Below, piece after piece: positions 2,174 through 64,000 of a DNA stretch of 64,000 bases. The translations under genes were made by a program, and so were the position numbers. Positions within the stretch are counted from its first letter, which is position 1; every line of letters begins with the position of its first letter. The stretch is from Escherichia phage vB_EcoM-LTH01. The stretch is from the sequence record PP430345; one strand, 5' to 3'. The notes under the pieces were generated by a model. That model saw only the letters and a list, made by a program, of their open reading frames with translations. It was not told where the DNA came from and searched no databases.

Positions 2174-2794
2174 TTATTCTCCTTTAACCAGTTTAGTAAG
2201 CTGTGCAATGAATTGATCCAGATTGTCCTCTGTGACTTCCGCATCCTTAACTCTGACTGTGCGCTTAATGTTCACTTCAAAAACATCCGTATCTACAACT
2301 TCCTGTTCTTTTTCTACAGGTGCAGGAGTGTAATTATCAAACTTAGCCAATGCTTTCTTTAAGCTATCTTCCTGCAAGGTGAAGTATTTTTCCAAATTAC
2401 TTTGCTTAAGCATAACATAATCGTCAGGATTATCGGAGTTATACAGTCGCCACATATTTGGATGACTTGTTTTGATCTTGTAGTCACCCCATTTATCCCC
2501 CAGCAGATACTGATCATCAATAGCCACTTCACCCCTTGGGATCGCTAGGTTAACGATGTATTCTGCCGACTCCGCTGACCATTGAGGGAAGAATGTGAAA
2601 TACTCTTCGATATCTCTGGATGTTAAGAACTGACCCTCAATACGTGGACCCACCGGACGTAAGTAAGAATCGTTATTCTCAGAAGGTCGAACAATGAATC
2701 GATCACCATGATTTTCAATCATACGTCGGTTAGATGGGTCCATTGAAATAAAATAACTTTTCTTACTTTCTTTCAGTTTTGCATATATAGCCAT
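2174..2794 (-). CDS. hypothetical protein (206 aa)
   Basis: ORF in operon context. Confidence 0.6.
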   Translation of the reverse strand: MAIYAKLKESKKSYFISMDPSNRRMIENHGDRFIVRPSENNDSYLRPVGPRIEGQFLTSRDIEEYFTFFPQWSAESAEYIVNLAIPRGEVAIDDQYLLGDKWGDYKIKTSHPNMWRLYNSDNPDDYVMLKQSNLEKYFTLQEDSLKKALAKFDNYTPAPVEKEQEVVDTDVFEVNIKRTVRVKDAEVTEDNLDQFIAQLTKLVKGE

Positions 2795-2864
2795 TTCTTT
2801 CTCCTCTTTGTTTTGATAACTGAAGTTTAGCTCAAGGGGTGACTCTCGTCAACCCCTTTTGTGA

Positions 2865-10464: not shown

Positions 10465-10721
10465 TGTTAGATCTTATTGTTGGTGTTTTTAGTGCTGACG
10501 TACAGTTTTCAGTGTTTGTTGTGGTTCTTACTGGATTAGGATTGATCGGTTTTGCATTTGTAAGAACTCTTTATAAATATTTCAAAATCGCCTCTGATTT
10601 TTACAAAGGTAAACGTACAAAGCTGAAGGCTTATCACTTTATCTCAGGGTTTGTTGATCTATACTTTCTGATCATTGTTCCTCAGGTAATTTATCACGTT
10701 GTTTCTTTAATTTTTAGTTGA
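10464..10721 (+). CDS. small membrane protein (85 aa)
   Basis: Two hydrophobic helices. Confidence 0.5.
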   Translation: MLDLIVGVFSADVQFSVFVVVLTGLGLIGFAFVRTLYKYFKIASDFYKGKRTKLKAYHFISGFVDLYFLIIVPQVIYHVVSLIFS

Positions 10722-10746
10722 CACCATATCAAGGGTCATGTAATAT
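10718..10746 (+). promoter_or_regulatory. sigma70-like promoter TTGACA-N17-TAATAT, followed by the CCTATCAAAACAAA element
   Basis: Hexamers read directly upstream of the 10777 gene. Confidence 0.5.
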
Positions 10747-10776
10747 GGCCCTATCAAAACAAACAAGGGGAAATAA

Positions 10777-11139
10777 ATGACTAAATCAAACAAGCATCCA
10801 GTAATCTTTAAAATTGCAGATCTTATTAAAGACGAGGCAGAATGGCAGCGATTCAAAGAATACGTTGAACGAGATATCAAATTGTACGGCCTTGATGCAA
10901 TATTTATCGAGCAAATGTCAGCAGTGGAGTATGTTAAGATCTCCAACGAAGAAGTTGAAAGCAAAATGGTAGAGATTTATAAACTGTCAAAACAGAACGG
11001 TATCACAGGGCATTATTATGGTAAACGTGCAGCTTTGAAAACGGCGCTTTATACTTTTATGTATACTAGAAACATCGATCCTAAAATTATTGAAGAGATT
11101 ATTGTTAAGCCACATGAAGAAGAAAAAGGTAATAAGTGA
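10777..11139 (+). CDS. hypothetical protein (120 aa)
   Basis: ORF with AAGGGG ribosome-binding site. Confidence 0.6.
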   Translation: MTKSNKHPVIFKIADLIKDEAEWQRFKEYVERDIKLYGLDAIFIEQMSAVEYVKISNEEVESKMVEIYKLSKQNGITGHYYGKRAALKTALYTFMYTRNIDPKIIEEIIVKPHEEEKGNK

Positions 11140-14966: not shown

Positions 14967-15349
14967 CAGCGCACGATAAACTGGCAGCTAAGTATGGCCT
15001 AAAATTCGGTGGTAACTTTGCACTGGAAGGGGTTAGTACGATTTCAGAAGACCTCGAAAAGAAATGCGGGTTTGCAATTGATGGAACTCAAAATCTGGTA
15101 AATCTGATAGGTTATATTGAACACTCCGAACTGGAATACCAAAAGACAGGGTTTGCGGGTCGTCGTGTAACAACCTCTCTTGTACGGGGTCTTGCTGTAC
15201 GTGATGGAAGTATCTATGCGATCACAGATGACTACGTATACCGCCTGTATGGCCCCTGGTTGGGCGAAGTCATCACAAGCAACCCTTTCCTTAATGGTTT
15301 GTGGAAAGGTATTGCTGATCAAATTCAGAAGCATATCGAAGGTAGTTGA
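14963..15349 (+). CDS. hypothetical protein (128 aa)
   Basis: ORF. Confidence 0.6.
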   Translation: MTAHDKLAAKYGLKFGGNFALEGVSTISEDLEKKCGFAIDGTQNLVNLIGYIEHSELEYQKTGFAGRRVTTSLVRGLAVRDGSIYAITDDYVYRLYGPWLGEVITSNPFLNGLWKGIADQIQKHIEGS

Positions 15350-15374
15350 CAAGAGGGTGACCCAGTGATAAGCT
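15346..15374 (+). promoter_or_regulatory. promoter-like TTGACA-N17-TAAGCT overlapping an inverted repeat GACCCAG-N7-CTGGGTC
   Basis: Read in the sequence upstream of the hydrolase gene. Confidence 0.35.
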
Positions 15375-15395
15375 GGGTCCTCAATTGGAGGTAAA

Positions 15396-21238: not shown

Positions 21239-21246
21239 TCCTAAAA

Positions 21247-21274
21247 ATAAACCGCCTTCGGGCGGTTTATTTCT
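21247..21274 (+). terminator. rho-independent terminator after the primase-helicase gene
   Basis: AAACCGCC-TTCG-GGCGGTTT hairpin followed by a T-tract. Confidence 0.7.
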
Positions 21275-21275
21275 A

Positions 21276-21304
21276 TTGACACCCTCATCAAACTCCCCTA
21301 TACT
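21276..21304 (+). promoter_or_regulatory. sigma70-like promoter TTGACA-N17-TATACT
   Basis: Hexamers directly after the terminator and upstream of the 21336 gene. Confidence 0.5.
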
Positions 21305-21335
21305 TCTCCCATACCAAACAGAAAGGAGAAAACAA

Positions 21336-26865: not shown

Positions 26866-29202
26866 ATGAAAGGCTTATTTATTGGAGATGCGGAAGCTAA
26901 CGGCCTGTTGACAGAGGTTGATCTCATTCACTGCGTCCTGTTTAAAGAGTATAAAAAAGATAACTGGAACATCTTTCTTGATCCCCAACGGGAAGGTTAC
27001 GATCAAGCTGTTAAATTTATCCAATCTAAAGGTAAAAACTTTAAGATTCGCACTATTGAAGAATTAAACGAATGGTTTGTCACAGAGCCTAAGGCAATTG
27101 CTATCCACAACATCTTCGGCTATGACCTCCAGTTGTTTAAGAAGATGCTAGGAACAACTTACGATATGTTTGCAGACCCTGGTTGCATGGGGACGATCAA
27201 TGGTAAACAAGTAACCATCTTCGATACACTTTCAATGTCCCGTACATTGTATCCAGATCGCCCTCTGCCTCGCGGTTGTCCTGAGATGGTAAAGAACCCC
27301 GTCACAGGTAAAATGAAGCCTGTAGGGCCACACGGGCTTGAAGCTTGGGGTATGCGAGTAGCCAACCAGAAAGTGGCGATTGAAGATTGGCGTGGCCTTC
27401 CACTTTGGAAGTATTGCGATCGTATTATTGAAGACGTAATTATCAACGAAATGGTGTGGGATGCTCTGATGAAAGAGATCTCTTGTGAATCTATGCCGGA
27501 TGATAAACGCTTCATGTATAAGGATGAAACAGACAAAGATCAGAAGAAGTATAAAATGATCAACTGGAAGAATGCCCTGCGTCGAGGTATGTTGACTGAC
27601 TACCTGATGATTGAGCAAGAAATTCAAGGTGTTTCATTTGATGAAGAAAAAGCACTCAAGCTTCGTGATCGTATCGATAAGATGATGACTGACATTGAGT
27701 TAGAGGTTGAACCTAAGTTGCCGAAGAAAGAGATGTCGAAATCAGCACAACCGACATTCCCATCCAAACCTTTCAAGGGCGATGGCTCTCTTTCCGGTAC
27801 AGGTTGGAAATGGTTAGAGAAGTTAGGTTATAATATCAATTGGGAAGCCTTGGAATTTAAAGGTGCACCAAGTAAGCCGTTTAAGGCTGACGGATCTCTT
27901 ACTGCCGCCGCGATCAAGTATTGTGTTGAACACGGTGTAGAAGATGAATCCAAAATGGGTGATTTTATCCGTGCACAAAACGTTAAGCAGCAAGGGCTTG
28001 TTCCTTTGCCGCCGGAAGATATGGCTCGTGCTTTGATGGATATCAAAGAACAAAAGATGCCGGACATTATGATCCCGATGCGTATTGGTAACCAGGACGA
28101 CGTTAAGAAGTTCCTGATCCGTGATGCAGGGTGGATTCCAACAATTTGGCGTACAAAGGATGCAACTAAAGATCAGTTCAAGAAACAACGTCCAGATAGT
28201 GAGGTTGACCTGATTGTTCGTCAATATATTGAAGATTTGGATCAGACAGAGTATCGGGATTTGATTCTGAAAAGCTTATCGATCACCCCTAAACAGTGGT
28301 CCGATAAAGAAAAGATGTTCAAGTTCTTCCGTAAGAAAGCCCGTGCATTACCAACATCTCCACAACTTAAGGATCAGCAGGGTCTTTGCCCTAACCTTGA
28401 GCGAGTAGATGGTGAAATGGCTAAACAGATTGTTAAATGGCTGTCTTTACGTAACCGACGATCTGTTCTTGACCCACTGAAAGAAGAGAAGGTTGATACC
28501 GGATGGCTTAACCATCCACGTCTACGAGTTGACGGTAAACTTCCGGCCCGTTATAGTGGAATAACTAACACAGGTCGTCGTAAGCATACGATCGTAGCAA
28601 ACGTACCTAAGCCGGATGAGAAAGTTCTTCTCGGTAAAGAGATGCGTGAACTGTTTAGAGCCTCCGAGGGTAAATATCAGGTAGGTATCGACGGTTCAAA
28701 CTTGGAAGGTATGATCGCGGCATGGGGCGCGTATGATTTCGATGGTGGCGCTTATCTTCGTATCATGGAATCTGGAGATGCTCACTCCCGAAACGCAGAA
28801 GCGTATACCAAAGCGGCAGGGAAGAAGGTTTCTCGTGGTGAAGGTAAAGGTGTGACATACGGAATTATGTACGGGGCACAGGCAGCGAAGATTGCATCAA
28901 TGCTGGGGATCACTCTTGAGAAGGCCCAGGCAGTAATCGACGCATTCTGGGATAGCAACATCGGCTTGAAAGGTCGTAAAGAAGCATTAGAGAAGTTTTG
29001 GGAAGCTAACGGTAAGCGATTCATCTACGGTCTTGATGGACGTAAGATCTACACTCGTTCCAAACACTCATTGCTTAATGCTTATCAGCAGAATGGTGGT
29101 GCTGCACTGTTTGACTTGGTGGGTATCCTCCTGCACTGGCAGTTGGTCAAGAAAGGTTGGTATGATGAAGGCGTTAGACGTATTATCTATTACCATAAGT
29201 AA
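26866..29202 (+). CDS. family A DNA polymerase (T7 gp5 / Pol I-like), 5' exon; the ORF runs into the intron and stops at 29202, true splice junction unresolved
   Basis: AAGGAG then ATG at 26866; exonuclease-like FIGDAEANGL; motif B RGEGKGVTYGIMYGAQ; ...GLDGRK...LLNAYQQ..RRIIYYH aligns with the pre-motif-C region of Pol I/T7 polymerase (recalled from memory). Confidence 0.75.
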   Translation: MKGLFIGDAEANGLLTEVDLIHCVLFKEYKKDNWNIFLDPQREGYDQAVKFIQSKGKNFKIRTIEELNEWFVTEPKAIAIHNIFGYDLQLFKKMLGTTYDMFADPGCMGTINGKQVTIFDTLSMSRTLYPDRPLPRGCPEMVKNPVTGKMKPVGPHGLEAWGMRVANQKVAIEDWRGLPLWKYCDRIIEDVIINEMVWDALMKEISCESMPDDKRFMYKDETDKDQKKYKMINWKNALRRGMLTDYLMIEQEIQGVSFDEEKALKLRDRIDKMMTDIELEVEPKLPKKEMSKSAQPTFPSKPFKGDGSLSGTGWKWLEKLGYNINWEALEFKGAPSKPFKADGSLTAAAIKYCVEHGVEDESKMGDFIRAQNVKQQGLVPLPPEDMARALMDIKEQKMPDIMIPMRIGNQDDVKKFLIRDAGWIPTIWRTKDATKDQFKKQRPDSEVDLIVRQYIEDLDQTEYRDLILKSLSITPKQWSDKEKMFKFFRKKARALPTSPQLKDQQGLCPNLERVDGEMAKQIVKWLSLRNRRSVLDPLKEEKVDTGWLNHPRLRVDGKLPARYSGITNTGRRKHTIVANVPKPDEKVLLGKEMRELFRASEGKYQVGIDGSNLEGMIAAWGAYDFDGGAYLRIMESGDAHSRNAEAYTKAAGKKVSRGEGKGVTYGIMYGAQAAKIASMLGITLEKAQAVIDAFWDSNIGLKGRKEALEKFWEANGKRFIYGLDGRKIYTRSKHSLLNAYQQNGGAALFDLVGILLHWQLVKKGWYDEGVRRIIYYHK

Positions 29203-29917
29203 CATTGTGGCTTTGTGAGGTAACTCACATCGAAAACTCCTTTAATTGCTGGAAGACTAAGGTTGATATTAATTCAAGTGTGAGTTAGTATGAGACTATG
29301 TTAATCAGCAGCGAAGAGGATCATGTGGAATATAAAGATTATTTCGGTTACAAGGTTTATGAAGACGGGACCATTATAGGTCGTCGAGGGAAACCAATGG
29401 CGGCAGTTGATAATGGACGTGGGTATCTTATTGTAAGTCTGTATCTCAACAAAAGGACGACTACAAAGGCTGTTCACGTTTTGGTGGCAGAGTGTTTTGT
29501 ACCAAACCCTGAAGGTTTGCCGGAGGTTGATCATAAGTGGCCTGACAAAAGGAATAACCACTATTCAAACCTCCAATGGACAACTCGTGGTGGAAATATC
29601 AAGAAAACCTTTGCTGATAAATGTCGTTCAGCAACAGGGGTTGATAACGCCAGAAGTATAGTTACCGAAGAAGAGGTTAGAGAGATTTGCAACTTCCTGG
29701 GGCAAGGTTATGGAAGTGCACAGATTCGGGATATGGGTTATCCTTACAACGTGGTAAGGTCCATAAAAATCCGTAAAAACTGGACACACATCTCTTGTGA
29801 CTACACATGGTCCTAACGTTCAGAGACTAGCCGAGAGGCGTAGGCGAGCAAGTGCCGTCGAAATGGGGAGCATCCTGAAAAGGATGGTGATATAGTCCGA
29901 TCCATACGTGAAAACGT
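29203..29917 (+). mobile_element. group I self-splicing intron carrying an HNH homing-endonuclease ORF, inserted in the polymerase gene at or near motif C (boundaries approximate; the 3' end may lie as far as about 30116)
   Basis: After the HNH stop: GTTCAGAGACTA (J6/7-P7) ... GATATAGTCC (P7 3' strand) and a P9-like hairpin CCATACGTG-AAAA-CGTATGG, matching the conserved group I core as I recall it from the Tetrahymena and T4 td introns. Confidence 0.65.
29298..29816 (+). CDS. HNH homing endonuclease (intron-encoded)
   Basis: YKDYFGYKVYEDGTIIGRRGKP...GYLIVSLY...AVHVLVAECFVPNP..LPEVDHKWPDKRNNHYSNLQWTT is the typical free-standing HNH homing-endonuclease pattern; different frame from both polymerase segments. 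Confidence 0.75.
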   Translation: MLISSEEDHVEYKDYFGYKVYEDGTIIGRRGKPMAAVDNGRGYLIVSLYLNKRTTTKAVHVLVAECFVPNPEGLPEVDHKWPDKRNNHYSNLQWTTRGGNIKKTFADKCRSATGVDNARSIVTEEEVREICNFLGQGYGSAQIRDMGYPYNVVRSIKIRKNWTHISCDYTWS

Positions 29918-30268
29918 ATGGCAACATGTAATGATGTGGGCGAGAGTAACGACCTCGTTAAACTTTTGGATGAATACCAGCTTGAAGTGCCGCACAAGTT
30001 CAAAAAGACTTGGACCTTTGACAACGAAGCTGACGCGAAGAAATTTGTAGAAGCTTGCTTGGCTAAGAAAATGATCTTGGATGGTCATTGTGTGAAAGAA
30101 GGGAAGTTTAAGTGTGATCCTGATGAGAATGGAATCTACACGATCATGTATTGTCCAGTTGGAGAGATGGTTGTTCGTTGCGTAGAGCAAGCAGCACGAA
30201 TGATGAAATCTCCTGTACACATAACAGGTGAATACCTCACAGGGATGAACTGGGGGGCGTGCCACTGA
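29918..30268 (+). CDS. family A DNA polymerase, 3' segment (C-terminal palm region); real exon start unresolved (between about 29930 and 30117)
   Basis: C-terminus ...CDPDENGIYTIMYCPVGEMVVRCVEQAARMMKSPVHITGEYLTGMNWGACH aligns with the (H)DE...NW..AH C-terminus of Pol I and T7 gp5, including the terminal His. Confidence 0.6.
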   Translation: MATCNDVGESNDLVKLLDEYQLEVPHKFKKTWTFDNEADAKKFVEACLAKKMILDGHCVKEGKFKCDPDENGIYTIMYCPVGEMVVRCVEQAARMMKSPVHITGEYLTGMNWGACH

Positions 30269-30274
30269 TAATTT

Positions 30275-30304
30275 AAACCACCCTTCGGGGTGGTTTTCTT
30301 TTAT
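30275..30304 (+). terminator. rho-independent terminator after the DNA polymerase
   Basis: AAACCACCC-TTCG-GGGTGGTTT then TTCTTTT. Confidence 0.7.
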
Positions 30305-30317
30305 GTGCAAAAAGTTA

Positions 30318-30347
30318 TTGACAGGACATACCCACATCAACTAAGAT
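30318..30347 (+). promoter_or_regulatory. sigma70-like promoter TTGACA-N18-TAAGAT
   Basis: Hexamers directly downstream of the terminator, upstream of the paralog array. Confidence 0.5.
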
Positions 30348-30376
30348 GTATCCATCAACTGAAGAGGAGAACAAAG

Positions 30377-30748
30377 ATGGAAATCGGAAAGACTTATATT
30401 CTTAATAAAGACTTAGAAAAAGCTTTTATTAGTATGGACCCTAGCTACAATCAAGAATTGGCTGATCTTCTTTATAAACACGGTCCTAAATTTGTTGTCA
30501 ACACCACCCACGTTTATGATAATGTTACATACGTTAACAATGTCATATTTGAAGATGGTACTTTAGGTAGTGACAGTCTTCACGGCTGCGAAGGTAACAA
30601 GGGTGTATACTTTGAACTTGCAGAGAGTGAATTTCCCTTCTTTAAGGAAGTCGGGGAAGATGAAGACCCTATTATCCAGGTTGCCGTTTCTCGTGGTAAT
30701 GCACAAGAAACCGTAGACCTGATTAAAGCTACCTTTAACCTAGTATAA
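30377..30748 (+). CDS. small protein, paralog family member 1 (MEIGKTYILN...QETVDLIKATFNL)
   Basis: GAGGAG ribosome-binding site; shares N- and C-terminal motifs with the next two genes. Confidence 0.65.
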   Translation: MEIGKTYILNKDLEKAFISMDPSYNQELADLLYKHGPKFVVNTTHVYDNVTYVNNVIFEDGTLGSDSLHGCEGNKGVYFELAESEFPFFKEVGEDEDPIIQVAVSRGNAQETVDLIKATFNLV

Positions 30749-30759
30749 GGAGGACAAAA

Positions 30760-31119
30760 ATGCAAGTCGGTAAAACTTATAAACTTAATCCAAAATTCGT
30801 GGAAGAATTTATTAAGGCTGACCCAAGTTACAATCACGAGATTGTTTCTTTTCTGGATGAGCACGGGCCGCGATTTATTGTTAACAACATGAGCATGATT
30901 GAAGGTGATGAGTATGTTAATAACATCACAACAGAAGATGGTGCTGTAGGGTGTGATTCATTCAGTGTGGGCTGCGGGGCAATGTACTTTGAACTTCGTG
31001 AATCTGAGTTCAAATACTTTGAAGAGGTCAGCGACCTTAAAATTATTCAGGTATCTGTGTCAGACCGCAACGCACAAGAAACTATTGACCTGATCAAATC
31101 CACATTTAACTTACCATAA
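30760..31119 (+). CDS. small protein, paralog family member 2 (MQVGKTYKLN...QETIDLIKSTFNL)
   Basis: AAGGAGG ribosome-binding site; paralog of the flanking genes. Confidence 0.65.
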   Translation: MQVGKTYKLNPKFVEEFIKADPSYNHEIVSFLDEHGPRFIVNNMSMIEGDEYVNNITTEDGAVGCDSFSVGCGAMYFELRESEFKYFEEVSDLKIIQVSVSDRNAQETIDLIKSTFNLP

Positions 31120-31129
31120 GGAGATTGTT

Positions 31130-31519
31130 ATGATGCAAGTAGGAAAAACTTATATTCTCAACCCTCTGTATAAAGATGATTTTACCCGCAAGTACCTCGC
31201 AAACGACAAGATTTCAGATTTGCTAGAGCGGCATGGTCCCAGTTTCGTTGTAGACGAGTTAAAAACCTACAATCTTGAGAATAAATTTGTAGCCCGTGTA
31301 ACTCTAGAGGATGGTACTGTATCTTCTAGCAATATTGAAGATGATTTATTTTTTGAGGTTTATCCTGATGAATTCGAATACTTCACCGAGGTAACTTTAG
31401 AACAGCCCCAACCTATTGCCGAAGATACAGTTTCAGGTGTAGCAAAAGTTCATTGTGTTGTGGATGAAAACAACGTCGATGAAATCATCAAACTTTTGCA
31501 AAAAACTTTTAAAAAGTAG
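31130..31519 (+). CDS. small protein, paralog family member 3 (MMQVGKTYILN...)
   Basis: AAGGAG ribosome-binding site; N-terminal motif shared, C-terminus more diverged. Confidence 0.65.
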   Translation: MMQVGKTYILNPLYKDDFTRKYLANDKISDLLERHGPSFVVDELKTYNLENKFVARVTLEDGTVSSSNIEDDLFFEVYPDEFEYFTEVTLEQPQPIAEDTVSGVAKVHCVVDENNVDEIIKLLQKTFKK

Positions 31520-31530
31520 TATACAAGCGG

Positions 31531-31566
31531 ATAGGACTATGTTATAGTAGTCCTATCAAAACAAAT
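31531..31566 (+). promoter_or_regulatory. perfect 10-bp inverted repeat GATAGGACTA-N8-TAGTCCTATC followed by CCTATCAAAACAAA; operator or stem-loop upstream of the 31579 gene
   Basis: Palindrome read in the sequence; the same CCTATCAAAACAAA 14-mer follows the promoter at 10741-10765. Confidence 0.45.
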
Positions 31567-31578
31567 GAGGAGAACAAA

Positions 31579-31905
31579 ATGAAAAGCAGCCCACAACTTC
31601 TGAATTTCTACCAAGAATATAAAAAATGGTTAGATATCGGTGCACCAAAAGATGGTGCTTTTTACCGAGGCGCTGGCCTTTGTTTTAATTTGTCCTCATT
31701 CCTGGGTAAAAATGATCCAGACATGAAAGTGCAATTCGAAATGAAGAATCAATTCTTTGATGCGGGTCTTAACACCGAAACACCTTTTGATTTTGATTTT
31801 GACGAATATGCCCATCATGGTTCAAAAGGTAAATCTTACCTCAACATTTATCGTCGTGGTTGGGTAGAAGATCGAATTCGCGACATGGAGAATACACATG
31901 AGTAA
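31579..31905 (+). CDS. hypothetical protein (108 aa)
   Basis: ORF with GAGGAG ribosome-binding site. Confidence 0.6.
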   Translation: MKSSPQLLNFYQEYKKWLDIGAPKDGAFYRGAGLCFNLSSFLGKNDPDMKVQFEMKNQFFDAGLNTETPFDFDFDEYAHHGSKGKSYLNIYRRGWVEDRIRDMENTHE

Positions 31906-32164
31906 TCTGGCAGTTACAGCGATTGTTAAATATGACTTGTTTCCTCGTTATCGGGTGATCAAAGGCCGACTGCTGCCAAATGGTAATGTTCAACTTATCG
32001 GATCAACGTCCTACATGAAGGCAGAGCACATTATTCGTATTCTTCCACTCGACCAGTTCGATGAAGAAGAAAAGAAAAAGGATAAACTTGTTTCCGATTA
32101 TCGTGAAAAAGAACTTAAATTAAGACTTGACTTGTTGGAACAAGCTGGTGTAGACTATATCTAA
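31898..32164 (+). CDS. hypothetical protein (88 aa)
   Basis: ORF. Confidence 0.55.
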   Translation: MSNLAVTAIVKYDLFPRYRVIKGRLLPNGNVQLIGSTSYMKAEHIIRILPLDQFDEEEKKKDKLVSDYREKELKLRLDLLEQAGVDYI

Positions 32165-32187
32165 CTTGAAACGAAGAGGATAATATA

Positions 32188-32454
32188 ATGTCAGAAAAAA
32201 CTTTAGTTGGTATTGAAAAAGCTTTCATCGAATCTTTTGATGGGTGGGATGAAATTGATTGTGGGGTGATGTATTTTTACGACGTTGTGTTAAAAGAAGA
32301 ATATAAGCATCTCGTACCAGAAGGAACTGCCTCTGTAGGTATGGCTGTTAGTTCGACTGAGAGCTATGTCCAATTTAATTTCTTCGACAAGGACGACAAA
32401 GCTACAACAAAAGCTTTCGAGATTAATCTTACTTTAGGTAAAGAAAAGTTATAG
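32188..32454 (+). CDS. hypothetical protein (88 aa)
   Basis: ORF with AAGAGGA ribosome-binding site. Confidence 0.55.
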   Translation: MSEKTLVGIEKAFIESFDGWDEIDCGVMYFYDVVLKEEYKHLVPEGTASVGMAVSSTESYVQFNFFDKDDKATTKAFEINLTLGKEKL

Positions 32455-32475
32455 ACTACCGAGGGGAATAAATAA

Positions 32476-32733
32476 ATGAAATTTTACTCAGCAAAACATA
32501 AATTTAGCGGTGAATTTGTTTCATTTTGGCAGACTGCCGACGATGATGGTTTTGTACATACAAAATTAAGTCTTTCTAATAACGAAAGGGACACACCTTT
32601 TGTGACCTCGTTAGAACAGGTAGCCAAACTGATCAAAGGTAATCTTAACAATGATTGGTCTATTATTGTATACGATGAGCTTAAGGAAGCTGTTGAAAAT
32701 TCAATGCTTGAAATCGTAGTAATTGATATCTGA
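32476..32733 (+). CDS. hypothetical protein (85 aa)
   Basis: ORF with GAGGGG ribosome-binding site. Confidence 0.55.
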   Translation: MKFYSAKHKFSGEFVSFWQTADDDGFVHTKLSLSNNERDTPFVTSLEQVAKLIKGNLNNDWSIIVYDELKEAVENSMLEIVVIDI

Positions 32734-32915
32734 TGAAAGTCAAAATCTTAGAATCAAAGACCAAACTGCTTGAGCAACTTAAGTATTACGGTGTCCAAAA
32801 AGATTCAATTCTTTTCGTGACAAAAGAAAGCGCGTCTGGTACTATTATTGCGAATAAGGGCAAGGGCTATCAATTTATGCTCTTGAAAGATGAATACGAA
32901 ATAGTTGAAGAATAG
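32733..32915 (+). CDS. hypothetical protein (60 aa)
   Basis: ORF. Confidence 0.45.
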   Translation: MKVKILESKTKLLEQLKYYGVQKDSILFVTKESASGTIIANKGKGYQFMLLKDEYEIVEE

Positions 32916-32923
32916 GAGTCACC

Positions 32924-33160
32924 ATGTGGCCTTTTAAAAAGAAAGAAACTGAAGAAAACAAACCAAGTTGTAAACATGATTTTGTCATTACTCAATGTAA
33001 TCAAGTTACAAAGGTAATGTCTCGCTTCTACGATACAGAAGAGATCAAGACAACAGTTGTGTCACGTATTTGTCGGCAATGCCTTGTACAAGAGGCTCAC
33101 ACTGTTCCAGGTCACATTGATTATTCTAAAGCTTTAAATATTTTTGGAGGTACTCGATGA
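32924..33160 (+). CDS. hypothetical Cys-containing protein (78 aa)
   Basis: ORF with AGGAG ribosome-binding site. Confidence 0.5.
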   Translation: MWPFKKKETEENKPSCKHDFVITQCNQVTKVMSRFYDTEEIKTTVVSRICRQCLVQEAHTVPGHIDYSKALNIFGGTR

Positions 33161-35753: not shown

Positions 35754-36340
35754 TGGAATACATTAGTTGGTTGTTTATCTTATCTGCGTGGGTTATCTTT
35801 GCTATCTGGTTAGCCCCTGTGATCATCGCTTTCCGTCGTAATCACAAGAACAAGGTTGTAATTTTAGCTTTGTCATTCTTTACTTCAATGATCCCTTACC
35901 CGCTTGCATTGTTTGCTTGTTGGATAGTTCTGTTGGCTTGGTCATTGTATAAAGTTTCAGTGGTCAATGATGGCTCAAAGTCTGCATATTTAGATTCTAA
36001 GTATCTTGAGTATGCAAAAGGACCGCAAGGTTTACCTGGTCCAATGGGTCCCCGTGGAGAGTCTGCTTATGAAACATACCTGAGAATTCTTCGTAAAGAA
36101 GATCCTAGCGCTATCCCACTAAATGAGAAGGATTGGCTGGATAGTTTAAAAGGGTTGGATGGTGACAAAGGTGATCGAGGGCCATCTGCATACGATCTGT
36201 ATTGCTTATCTGTATGGTCCAAAGGTGATGGTAAAGTACCTCTGTCTTTAGATGAGTGGCTAGAATCTCTCCGTGGTAAAGATGCAGACGAATTACCTTT
36301 ATCTAAAAAAGGTGTCGTTAGTCCACCAAAACGTCCTTGA
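35753..36340 (+). CDS. membrane-anchored protein with a tail-fibre-like repeat domain
   Basis: N-terminal hydrophobic helices; then GPQGLPGPMGPRG and two repeats of the SAYE/D.Y...(D/E)WL(D/E)SL(K/R)G type. Confidence 0.6.
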   Translation: MEYISWLFILSAWVIFAIWLAPVIIAFRRNHKNKVVILALSFFTSMIPYPLALFACWIVLLAWSLYKVSVVNDGSKSAYLDSKYLEYAKGPQGLPGPMGPRGESAYETYLRILRKEDPSAIPLNEKDWLDSLKGLDGDKGDRGPSAYDLYCLSVWSKGDGKVPLSLDEWLESLRGKDADELPLSKKGVVSPPKRP

Positions 36341-36394
36341 CAGAAAGTTAAGTGTGGGGCATAATGGCCCCACTTAAACAACAGAGGAAAGAAG

Positions 36395-36775
36395 ATGAGT
36401 ATTTTTGACGGTAAAGATTATTTGGTTGCTGATTGGATTCCTATCTCTGCGACACGTAACATTCACATTTACGATGGTGTTAAGAATTTGAATACGACGA
36501 TCATCTACACAAACAGTGAAGAAGACCGTGAAATGCAAATCATGAGTGTCTTCGGTATTGATGATGAGAATAAGATTGAAAAAGGTCGTGCTCGTATTGG
36601 TATCGACATTTTCGACCTGTCTGGTGACCAAAGTGCAGATCCCGTAAACATTGACCGTTCTCGTGTGTTTGCTCACAAAGAAGAACAATTTACGGAAGAA
36701 CTTATTAAAGACTTGCAGATGATCAACACTTTGTTTGATAATGTTCATGAAAAAGTTAAGCGAGTTTATCTCTAA
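36395..36775 (+). CDS. hypothetical protein (126 aa)
   Basis: ORF with GAGGAAAG ribosome-binding site. Confidence 0.6.
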   Translation: MSIFDGKDYLVADWIPISATRNIHIYDGVKNLNTTIIYTNSEEDREMQIMSVFGIDDENKIEKGRARIGIDIFDLSGDQSADPVNIDRSRVFAHKEEQFTEELIKDLQMINTLFDNVHEKVKRVYL

Positions 36776-38048: not shown

Positions 38049-38084
38049 TAAAAATAAAGGCGCTCATTTGAGCGCCTTTTCTTT
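38049..38084. terminator. bidirectional rho-independent terminator between the convergent plus and minus blocks
   Basis: AAAGGCGCTCA-TTT-GAGCGCCTTT flanked by an A-tract and a T-tract. Confidence 0.7.
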
Positions 38085-61547: not shown

Positions 61548-64000
61548 TTAACCTATAGTCATTGCTTGAGTACCCGTCAGGAACTCACCATCCCAGAACA
61601 AGGTCAGGATAGTGCGAGTAGCCCCGAGAGTAGGTGCTGTTCCGTTAGACCAAGCGATCTGGCTATCCCAGTTAATCTGACCACCGTTACCAGTGAATCG
61701 TAAGACTATGGTTTTAGCCCTTCCTGCTGGCAATCCGGTGATGACTAAGGATTTGTTGGTAGTCCCATCTAAAGTCCAAGCGTTACCTGTGCTTGCATCA
61801 ATTGCCCCTGTAGAAGCAACAACACGCAAATCGTACTGGTCCAGCTTAACCCATGCGCCGTTTTCACGAACATAGAACCCACCTTCCAGCGGTGCTTCCA
61901 GAACTGGAACCGTCAATGTAGACCAAGCACCATCTTTACGGACGTACTGGTTACCATCACGAGGTGCTTCCAGAACTTCTGCGGTAGGCAGTTCAGTCCA
62001 ATCACCGTCGGTACGGACATACAGCTTTCCGTCCCCTGGTGCGTCATACACGTTACCACCACCTAAGAATCCGAGCAGTGCCCAGTTCGTTGCGGAAGTT
62101 TTACGGTAATATTCCAGAGTGGAAGAGTTCAGGTACAAATCGTTAAGACGACCATCGCTAACCATCGGTGCACGAGGGAAAACAACCCACAATGTACCTT
62201 GATCACCTTTAGCACCTGTCGGACCAGAAGGGCCTTGCGGACCTTGGTTACCCGTTGGACCAACTGGTCCTACTGGACCTTGGATACGTCCTAAGTTTTC
62301 GTATGCTGCACCAGTCCAACCCCAGAAGTCACCTTGGATAAGATAACCTTGACCCAAAGTACCAGTTGAAGGTAATTCATCAGAGGTATCAAATCGACCA
62401 ATGATCTCTACACCAGGACCAATATCTCCCTGAGGACCTTGCTCACCCTGTGGGCCTTGGTCGCCTTGTGGTCCTACTTCACCACGTTCACCCTGAGGAC
62501 CTTGCTCCCCTTGTGGCCCTGTGGCTCCAGTATCACCTTTGTCACCTTTAGCGCCAGTCAATCCCTGAGGGCCCTGAGTACCCTGAGGACCTTGCTCCCC
62601 TTGTGGGCCACGGGCAACCCCAGCCTCTACAAAAGCAGTTCCGTCGAAAGCGTAACCGATCCCAGTGTCGTCTGTGACATAGAAATCACCTACAGCACCA
62701 GTTTGAGGAAGGTCTGCTTGAGATGGTACAGTTCCTTTAGGGATCAGGCCAGAGCCAACATCCCCCTTGTCGCCTTTGTCTCCTTTTGCACCAGTTTCAC
62801 CAGCAGGTCCTTGTGGTCCTTGGTCACCCGTAGAACCTTTCTCACCTTGTGGACCTTGAGGACCAACTTCTCCTTGAGGGCCGACCTCACCCTGCGGTCC
62901 GCGAACGGTTCCGGCAGAAACGAATTCCACGCCATCCCAAGCGTAACCGATCCCAGTGTCTTCAGCTACGTAGAAGTCACCTAATTCAGCAGTAGAAGGA
63001 AGTTCAGCGGAGGTTGCAACCAAACCTTTCAGCTTCAGTGCATCACCTGCGTCGCCTTTGTCTCCTTTGTCTCCTTTCTCACCAGTGTCGCCTTTGTCGC
63101 CCTTCAGACCCTGAGGTCCACGAGTAAGACCAGTCAGTACCCATGCAGTGCCATCCCAAGCATAACCATTACCTTCAGACTCTACAACGTAGAAGTCACC
63201 AGTGGTGGCATCGGCAGGAAGTGCTTCTTGAGTTGCAACAATACCACGAGCAACGATACCAATTCCAGTATCACCCTTATCACCCTTATCGCCCTTGTCA
63301 CCTTTTTCGCCAGTCTCACCCTGTGGACCAATACCACCTTGTGGACCAGTCTCACCTTGGGGGCCAGCAGGACCTTGTGCCCCTGTTGCACCCTGCGGTC
63401 CTTGTGCACCAGTCAGACCAATAGGACCTTGTGGACCTTGTGGTCCTACATCCCCTTGGGGACCTTTGATGTTACCAACGTTAGTCCACTGACCGCCAGT
63501 AAAGATATAAAGATCAGCTTCAATCAGATAAGCATCACCTTCACTAATACCAGTCTGAGGCAATTGGTCTTCGGAAGCTACTGAGCCAAGGATATTCAGA
63601 CCCGCACCAACAGGACCTTGTTCACCTTGTGGACCAGTTAATCCACGAGGGCCAGTTGCACCCACGTCACCTTTTTCACCCTTCAAGGTTGCAAGGTATT
63701 CATTAACTGAACCTTCGAAACCGTTAGCAACCGCGATAGTGTAGTTGTCGTCTCCTTTATCGCCTTTATCGCCTTTGTCCCCTTTATCGCCTTTATCACC
63801 CTTAGCACCAACTGGGCCTTGTGGGCCTTGGAAAGATCCCAAATCTTCCCAGTTACCAGTACCATCAGAAACGAAGACATTAGTTCCGATCAGGTAAGCA
63901 TCACCCGCATCAGCACCTGCTGGCAAACTTGCTTCATCGGCAACAGAACCTAAGATATTAATAGCGTTAGCATTCTTACCGTCAACACCAGGTTCACCCT
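61548..64000 (-). CDS. collagen-like modular fibre protein, 5'-partial (N-terminus lies beyond the window end)
   Basis: Frame stays open to position 64000; at least five repeats of a ~25-aa module (LP.TG..GD.Y......Y.W.G..W...G...GP.G) alternating with Gly-X-Y tracts; non-collagen C-terminal domain. Confidence 0.7.

Follow-up and report, generated by a model that had tools for sequence, protein, structure and literature searches.

What is the function of the perfect 10-bp palindrome that lies in front of a small gene of Escherichia phage vB_EcoM-LTH01? The inverted repeat GATAGGACTA-tgttatag-TAGTCCTATC occupies positions 31530–31557 of the 64 000 nucleotides analyzed here (sequence record PP430345; hereafter the window), and leads through the 14-mer CCTATCAAAACAAA and a ribosome-binding site to a gene beginning at 31579. 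An earlier note on this DNA had described this arrangement correctly, its start at 31531 being one base inside the left arm. It had also found an exact second copy of the 14-mer in front of the gene at 10777, downstream of a TTGACA-N17-TAATAT promoter, and both of these are confirmed (Table 1). The palindrome and the 14-mer were taken to be a shared operator or 5′ UTR element for coordinated control. We arrive at a different answer, and consider it probable that the segment 31497–31581 is an early promoter cassette of T-even type with the architecture published under the name PeSL (promoter-early stem-loop), the hairpin being proposed to act on read-through RNA. The type of element is already known. 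What is unusual is the genome that houses it, that of a Vequintavirinae phage, and its place beside a T-even gene.

By the definition given in two papers (PMC2839356; PMC4122927), a PeSL comprises an AT-rich region that includes the upstream stop codon, then a sigma-70 promoter whose −35 or −10 box is overlapped by a stem-loop, or has the stem-loop between the two, and lastly a Shine-Dalgarno (SD) sequence and an ATG. PeSLs are numerous within a genome, cluster in variable regions and are found where close relatives differ by indels. The experiments of these papers demonstrate promoter activity, together with terminator activity of one stem-loop; this is the sole stem-loop for which they give an assay, and it is G/C-rich and comes from RB49/phi1. 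The legend for the PeSLs of T4/PST places the stem-loops ‘just upstream of the promoter’ (PMC4122927), so that the stems meant by the authors in those phages may differ from the stem 31530–31557. To judge from its sequence, the cassette 31497–31581 fits each point of the definition that can be read at that level.

RESULTS

The palindrome encloses the −10 element of a predicted promoter

A promoter scan of the window returned TATACA-17-TATAGT with TG, placed so that the loop of the inverted repeat coincides with the extended −10 element (Table 1). The TATACA agrees with TTGACA at four of six positions. Relative to the T-even consensus the −35 region has A in place of T at the third position, GTATAC thus matching GTTTAC at five of six. 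From the −10 hexamer at 31543–31548 transcription is predicted to start at A31555, and the 14-mer CCTATCAAAACAAA then extends from −3 to +11. The CC at −3/−2 agrees with the preference for C at −3 to −1 in phage RB69 (PMC1524935).

Table 1. Features of the cassette 31497–31581, its flanking genes and the native promoter cassettes of the window
Feature	Position	Strand	Remarks
FRD2-family gene, 129 aa	31130..31519	+	Pfam PF03197, E 8.8e-28
A-rich UP-like tract tgcaaaaaacttttaaaaagtag	31497..31518	+	read from sequence
Stop TAG of FRD2-family gene	31517–31519	+	inside A-rich tract
−35 region GTATACA	31519..31525	+	T-even consensus GTTTACA
5′ arm of inverted repeat GATAGGACTA	31530..31539	+	inside 17-bp promoter spacer
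Hairpin loop tgttatag	31540–31547	+	extended −10 of promoter
Extended −10: TGt 31540–31542 and TATAGT 31543–31548	31540..31548	+	TGtTATAGT is the RB69 consensus
3′ arm TAGTCCTATC	31548..31557	+	last −10 base, discriminator, +1 to +3
14-mer CCTATCAAAACAAA	31552..31565	+	end of discriminator and A/C-rich leader
Predicted transcription start A	31555	+	7 nt past −10 hexamer, sigma-70 geometry
Shine-Dalgarno GAGGAG	31567–31572	+	6-nt spacer to ATG
ATG of 108-aa gene	31579–31581	+	3′ end of cassette
Downstream gene, 108 aa	31579..31905	+	homologues in phi92-, phAPEC8- and N4-like phages
Native early promoter cassette 2	10718..10779	+	TTGACA 10718–10723, N17, TG-TAATAT 10741–10746
Cassette 2 hairpin AGGGTCATG/TATGGCCCT	10732–10740/10744–10752	+	−11.5 kcal/mol, around 3′ part of −10
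Cassette 2 14-mer; SD; ATG	10750–10763; 10765–10770; 10777	+	
Native early promoter cassette 3	2792..2856	−	−35 TTGACG 2852–2847, N17, −10 TAAACT 2829–2824
Cassette 3 hairpin GGGGTTGAC-gaga-GTCACCCC	2856–2836	−	over −35
Cassette 3 leader: tca, GTTATCAAAACAAA; SD GAGGAG; ATG	2820–2807; 2806–2801; 2794	−	
Native cassette TTGACA-N17-TAAGCT	15346..15388	+	ATG 15386
15346 hairpin GACCCAGT/GCTGGGTC		+	8 bp, overlaps −10; −20.3 kcal/mol, z −3.9
Native cassette TTGACA-N17-CATAAT	36337..36397	+	ATG 36395
36337 hairpin GTGGGGC-ataatg-GCCCCAC	36354–36360/36367–36373	+	−10 in loop; −16.3 kcal/mol, z −3.5
Native cassette with stem after −10	13623	+	
Native cassette with stem after −10	6616	−	
	

Homologues in T4-like phages

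The relatives of the window are the Escherichia phages UPEC06, A7_1, A5-4, A73 and W70 (Vequintavirinae; 93–95% identity), whose clade has been described as Septuagintavirus in a paper that contains nothing on promoters (PMC11370258). A blastn search with 31500–31600 found these five relatives and, beyond them, hundreds of T4-like genomes, where sensitive blastn matches ∼86 nt at 84–92% identity in about 10 places per genome. The 87-nt element is conserved in the five relatives and in T4-like phages alike.

The early promoters of T4 have UP, −35, TGn and −10 elements together with additional consensus regions (PMC2988021). In RB69, 57 early promoters have been predicted, which have GTTTAC at −36 to −31, C at −3 to −1 and, at −40 to −44, a stretch rich in A (PMC1524935). 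Searching the whole RB69 genome by nhmmer, with the 87-mer of the window as the only query, yielded 13 copies (best E 1.3e-9), every one of them on the early-gene strand and directly 5′ of a start codon. Their consensus reads aaaa-GTTTACA-...-GATAGGACTA-TGtTATAGT-AGTCCTATCAAAACAA-...GAGGAG...ATG, and both the palindrome and the 14-mer therefore belong to the early promoter consensus of Mosigvirus. Seven of the 13 copies contain the first 11 bases of the 14-mer, CCTATCAAAAC, and most of the remaining copies deviate from these at one base. On this comparison the 14-mer is no separate regulatory box, but positions −3 to +11 of the T-even-type early promoter consensus. Of the earlier reading of the 14-mer, what stands is a leader element common to promoters of one class; a shared operator does not, given its place in the start region.

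An HMM of the RB69 copies matches the window at 31497–31583 with E 6e-19, the window element itself being among the 14 sequences of the training set. By the same means we find a single T-even-type copy in the window and a single one in the whole genome of A7_1, aside from a weak second match in the window at 10715–10780 (E 4e-4).

Significance of the palindrome and the 14-mer

Random sequence of 64 kb with matched composition should contain 1.7 ± 1.5 inverted repeats of 10 perfect base pairs around a loop of 3–20 nt, at least one appearing in 80% of simulations, and ∼12.5 repeated 14-mers are expected by chance per 64 kb. By count alone, then, neither the palindrome nor the repeated 14-mer goes beyond chance. 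The counts are compatible with a chance origin, but the comparative data rule it out. Both exact copies of CCTATCAAAACAAA start 3 nt after a −10 hexamer, and the probability of any in-register match of 14 nt among 100 leaders is estimated at ∼3e-5. A search for further copies added those of RB69 and a third leader in the window, GTTATCAAAACAAA on the minus strand, whose register is identical to that of the other two. Each copy lies between a sigma-70 −10 element and a ribosome-binding site, which makes shared early expression plausible.

The cassette at 10718, to which the weak HMM match corresponds, is native to the clade, its conservation being limited to the five Septuagintavirus relatives. 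The inverted repeat CCATAT...ATATGG that had been remarked upon near the 10777 gene is present, but AGGGTCATG/TATGGCCCT forms the better stem, the pairing of which is retained in A7_1 via G-U changes.

Folding and covariation of the hairpin

As RNA the inverted repeat folds with −16.5 kcal/mol (z −6.8), and as a DNA hairpin with about −7.7 kcal/mol (z about −6) on both strands. RNA that begins at 31555 has an MFE of 0 and no structure; the 3′ arm ends at +3, so the promoter's own transcripts would contain just 3 nt of that arm and lack the hairpin. Read-through RNA from the FRD2 gene carries the full hairpin just before the leader. Four of the ten base pairs of the A/T-rich stem are G-C, and the stem is followed by AAAACAAA. 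An intrinsic terminator of the FRD2 gene was considered and rejected: the element is absent from the terminator scan, and with no U-tract after the hairpin (CCUAUCAAAACAAA) it is not a canonical intrinsic terminator, making classical termination unlikely. Rfam gave no relevant match in 30000–33000 at E values up to 1, and a literature search for inverted repeats in T4 early promoters produced nothing useful.

We scanned IMG/VR with two patterns in which only GTTTAC, TGnTATA(G/A)T and TCAA are fixed and the arms are unconstrained. The distribution of in-register pairs is bimodal, with 3–5 of 10 in most sequences, against a random expectation of 3.75, and all 10 in 10 unique sequences. The latter have different stems, namely GATAGGACTA/TAGTCCTATC, GATAGGGCTA/TAGCCCTATC, GGCAAGRTTA/TAATCTTGTC and GATAGGTTCA/TGGACCTATC. 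In the first IMG/VR set the covariation score is 0.345, compared with at most 0.196 for slid controls, and none of 500 shuffles reaches it. With the register left free, a hairpin that encloses the −10 and reaches −9.7 kcal/mol or better is found in ∼24 of the 122 unique sequences, and the stems among these are of many kinds; about one-third of the sampled T-even promoters fold significantly better than their shuffles (z ≤ −2). Compensated variants of the stem occur in RB69 too (GGGCTA/TAGCCC and GGTCTAT/ATAGACC). The mismatches in the sampled stems, G-T in seven cases and A-C in four, accommodate pairing in either sense-strand RNA or DNA. It is the pairing, rather than the sequence, that is conserved in the stem. 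The arms change together with pairing kept, which fits a nucleic-acid hairpin and speaks against a fixed protein-binding sequence. The notion that the in-register stem is universal in T-even early promoters was rejected, as most of those sampled pair at the random level.

The FRD2 gene and the boundaries of the cassette

The stop codon within the A-rich tract is that of an FRD2-family gene, the protein of which is 57–60% identical to FRD2 of Mosigvirus and T-even phages, and 46% identical to the copy in UPEC06. Otherwise the family PF03197 is virtually restricted to T4-like phages (866 records). In the Mosigvirus FP43 the element 31497–31581 also follows a homologous FRD2 gene, with 92% identity over 88 nt for the cassette and 76% over 464 nt for gene and cassette together. 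The stretch aaaaaacttttaaaaagtag at 31500–31519 is the same as in FP43 base for base, and the A-rich tract is near-identical to the RB69 frd.2-frd.1 spacer.

The homology with FP43 runs from the FRD2 gene through the SD sequence, where T-even homology stops. A homologue search found no T-even counterpart of the 108-aa gene, and neither the 108-aa nor the 120-aa downstream protein has a Pfam family. The Septuagintavirus relatives align with the window only as far as ∼31320 and then again beginning at the −35. In A5-4 an extra ORF of 243 nt lies upstream of the −35, of which UPEC06, A7_1 and A73 have a deletion remnant, and there are three configurations of this region among the six related phages. 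The gap in the relatives' alignment and the non-T-even gene downstream therefore place breakpoints at either side of the cassette, as expected under the PeSL model. We infer from these sequence comparisons that horizontal transfer lies behind the cassette and FRD2 gene held in common with Tevenvirinae.

There are three tandem FRD2 paralogues at 30377–31519 (+), of which 30760–31119 and 31130–31519 match PF03197; the first most likely starts at ATG 30377, not GTG 30290. In A7_1 three adjacent ‘anti-restriction nuclease’ genes at 131.3–132.3 kb resemble the T-even arn.1-arn.3 block, and are possibly a second T-even gene block in the clade. The DNA polymerase gene of the window (26866–30265, +) is interrupted by an insert of ∼770 nt that UPEC06 lacks, residues 1–777 of the UPEC06 polymerase mapping to 26866–29196 and residues 778–876 to 29969–30265. 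The insert gives a match to the complete Rfam model of group I introns (RF00028) at 29187–29920, with E 1.9e-9 and 42.9 bits, short of the gathering score of 50, and it carries an HNH_3 endonuclease ORF at 29298–29816.

Native promoter-plus-hairpin cassettes

While T-even-type copies number one in the window and one in A7_1, the window contains at least six native promoter-plus-hairpin cassettes (Table 1). Placement of the −10 within a hairpin as in 31497–31581 recurs at 10718, 15346 and 36337. The candidate promoters at 21276 (+), 7908 (−) and 4459 (−) have no hairpin. With one T-even-type copy per genome, recombination between copies within a genome is impossible; it could occur only with T-even phages or through the short shared leader.

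The region 74.9–88 kb of A7_1 holds ∼25 small ORFs, most of them behind one repeated cassette. This has ∼20 repeats of the form aaaaagtaGTTGACA-N17-TAnnnT, with a G/C-rich stem-loop in the leader, an SD sequence and an ATG. The array is a native PeSL-like repeat family of Septuagintavirus.

Elsewhere in the window a terminator is followed by a promoter without overlap. At 30275–30347 (+) the hairpin AAACCACCC-ttcg-GGGTGGTTT with a T-run precedes TTGACA-N18-TAAGAT, and at 21245–21305 (+) AAATAAACCGCC...GGCGGTTTATTT is directly followed by TTGACA-N17-TATACT. A perfect G/C-rich 10-bp palindrome with T-runs on both strands, AAAGGCGCTC-attt-GAGCGCCTTT at 38056–38079, is reminiscent of a bidirectional terminator. 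Toward the left end of the window, at 241–392, there are several copies of GAAAAACC(C/T)CTCAAGT, ∼30–150 bp apart and close to a divergent transcription boundary in A7_1. Many repeated 14-mers, GGACCTTGTGGACC for example, fall in 59.6–63.8 kb, with tandem repeats of period 9 and period 18 at 62428–63803; the repeats of 59.6–63.8 kb look like the collagen-like Gly-X-Y repeats of a minus-strand fibre gene.

DISCUSSION

How might the cassette function? Host sigma-70 RNA polymerase would bind three elements: the A-rich UP-like tract, GTATACA as the −35 and TGtTATAGT as the extended −10. Transcription beginning at about A31555 would provide an A/C-rich, unstructured leader of 24 nt with a strong SD sequence, and so immediate early expression of the 108-aa gene. 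The sequences show the homology, the multi-copy consensus, the covarying stem, the geometry and the breakpoints at the cassette; promoter activity in LTH01, the start site and the part played by the hairpin are all predictions. The hairpin would act on read-through RNA, whether as an attenuator, as protection of a 3′ end or as an insulator between cassettes. The cassette as a whole would supply homologous sequence for gene exchange. A role of the hairpin in recombination would be a second and compatible function; we favour the effect on read-through RNA.

Could the palindrome be an operator after all? A dimeric DNA-binding protein bound to it, and so seated on the −10, might shut the promoter off, and the 14-mer would belong to a common control box. 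The palindrome, which is perfect, overlaps the −10, conservation among the RB69 copies is strongest in the outer half-sites GATAGG/CCTATC, and as AsiA does not explain the shut-off of T4 early transcription (PMC2988021), an unknown repressor is conceivable in T-even phages. Yet the paired arms diverge widely with pairing kept (GGGCTA/TAGCCC, CAAGRTTA/TAATCTTG, GGAAG/CTTCC, AGAGC/GTTCT and others), which a sequence-specific protein would not tolerate. Moreover the palindrome is not found in both leaders of the window; it exists as a single copy there and in A7_1, the site before the 10777 gene having a different stem, and the 14-mer lies downstream of the start site. We regard an operator as very unlikely, and the proposal of a shared one has to be given up. 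Still less credible is coincidence, by which both the palindrome and the repetition of the 14-mer would have arisen by chance in A/T-rich intergenic sequence. It draws on the random-sequence counts, but these are set against base-for-base conservation in five relatives and in Mosigvirus phages, a consensus of 13 copies in RB69, arms that covary and the estimated rarity of the in-register match. We give it practically no weight.

A function at the level of DNA is improbable, though less so than an operator, and is in part compatible with the promoter cassette and its proposed action on read-through RNA. In supercoiled or single-stranded DNA the repeat might extrude as a hairpin or cruciform, and thereby offer the −10 in single-stranded form to sigma-70 and speed opening, or else be a preferred site of recombination or template switching. 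The DNA hairpin is predicted for both strands, a crossover in RB49 has been mapped inside the stem-loop's loop and stem-loops blocked sequencing of a single-stranded template (PMC2839356). The breakpoints fall at the cassette, and A-C mismatches are not clearly rarer than G-T. On the other hand a 10-bp stem with an 8-nt loop makes a weak cruciform, and sigma-70 promoters endowed with UP, TGn and −10 elements need no help from a hairpin. Many T-even early promoters lack such a stem, most of the 122 sampled having 3–5 of 10 pairs.

Reading 31497–31581 as an early promoter cassette explains the odd palindrome by a known class of very strong phage promoters, and spares the hunt for a repressor that probably does not exist. 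A T4-family FRD2 gene with a T4-type early promoter in an rV5-like phage connects two phage families. Conservation is higher in the promoter than in the gene, and differences in gene content between close relatives begin exactly at the edge of the cassette. This is evidence at the sequence level that such cassettes travel between phage families with a common host, and it documents the sharing of a gene together with its promoter. It lends support to the idea that the cassettes may be hot spots for the shuffling of small early genes. The covariation of the stem in T-even promoters is documented here, and offers an experimental handle on the hairpin around the −10. A bolder suggestion, which we put forward as possible but doubtful, is that promoter-plus-hairpin cassettes are a common linker for the exchange of early genes between Tevenvirinae and Vequintavirinae, that their recurring geometry, in which the loop holds the −10 and the 3′ arm stops at the start site, is under selection, and that the FRD2 cassette is one exchange caught in the act. 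If that were so, early genes would move between unrelated families of virulent coliphages with their expression signals ready made; the mRNA of each cassette would itself be hairpin-free, and the read-through RNA coming from the previous cassette would be marked, attenuated or stabilized.

How does the cassette compare with known systems? The early promoters recognized by the N4 virion RNA polymerase, a phage enzyme, have a stem of 5–7 bp and a loop of 3 nt. Presentation of a promoter element in a DNA hairpin is common to both, but the cassette has ordinary sigma-70 elements that are recognized without a hairpin. Overlapping terminator-promoter units and 5′ hairpin insulators occur in phage early operons. 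These would share with the cassette a hairpin found in read-through RNA only, a fresh start of transcription and an unstructured leader, and the likeness is a functional analogy only.

The resemblance to the PeSL is closer. As in the definition of Arbiol 2010 (PMC2839356) and Comeau 2014 (PMC4122927), there is an upstream stop codon in an AT-rich region, a sigma-70 promoter, a stem-loop overlapping the −10, an SD sequence and an ATG. The surroundings are likewise a variable region made up of small ORFs, in which the cassette sits at the boundary of an indel or replacement between close relatives. It differs in that PeSLs have been described only in T4-like phages, and we found no paper linking them with rV5-like phages in the literature searched; in addition the stem 31530–31557 is A/T-rich and without a U-tract, in contrast to the polyG/polyC of PeSLs. 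With the T-even early promoters the cassette shares the UP-like A tract, G-T(T/A)TACA at −36 to −30, the 17-bp spacer, TGn, the −10 TATAGT/TATAAT, C at −3/−2 and the leader ATCAAAACAA. It departs from them in its −35 GTATAC, with A for T at the third position, in being the sole copy in a Septuagintavirus genome, and in serving a downstream gene that has no T-even homologue. Among these promoters the nearest counterpart is the one in the frd.2-frd.1 intergenic region of Mosigvirus, to which the cassette 31497–31581 is homologous in position.
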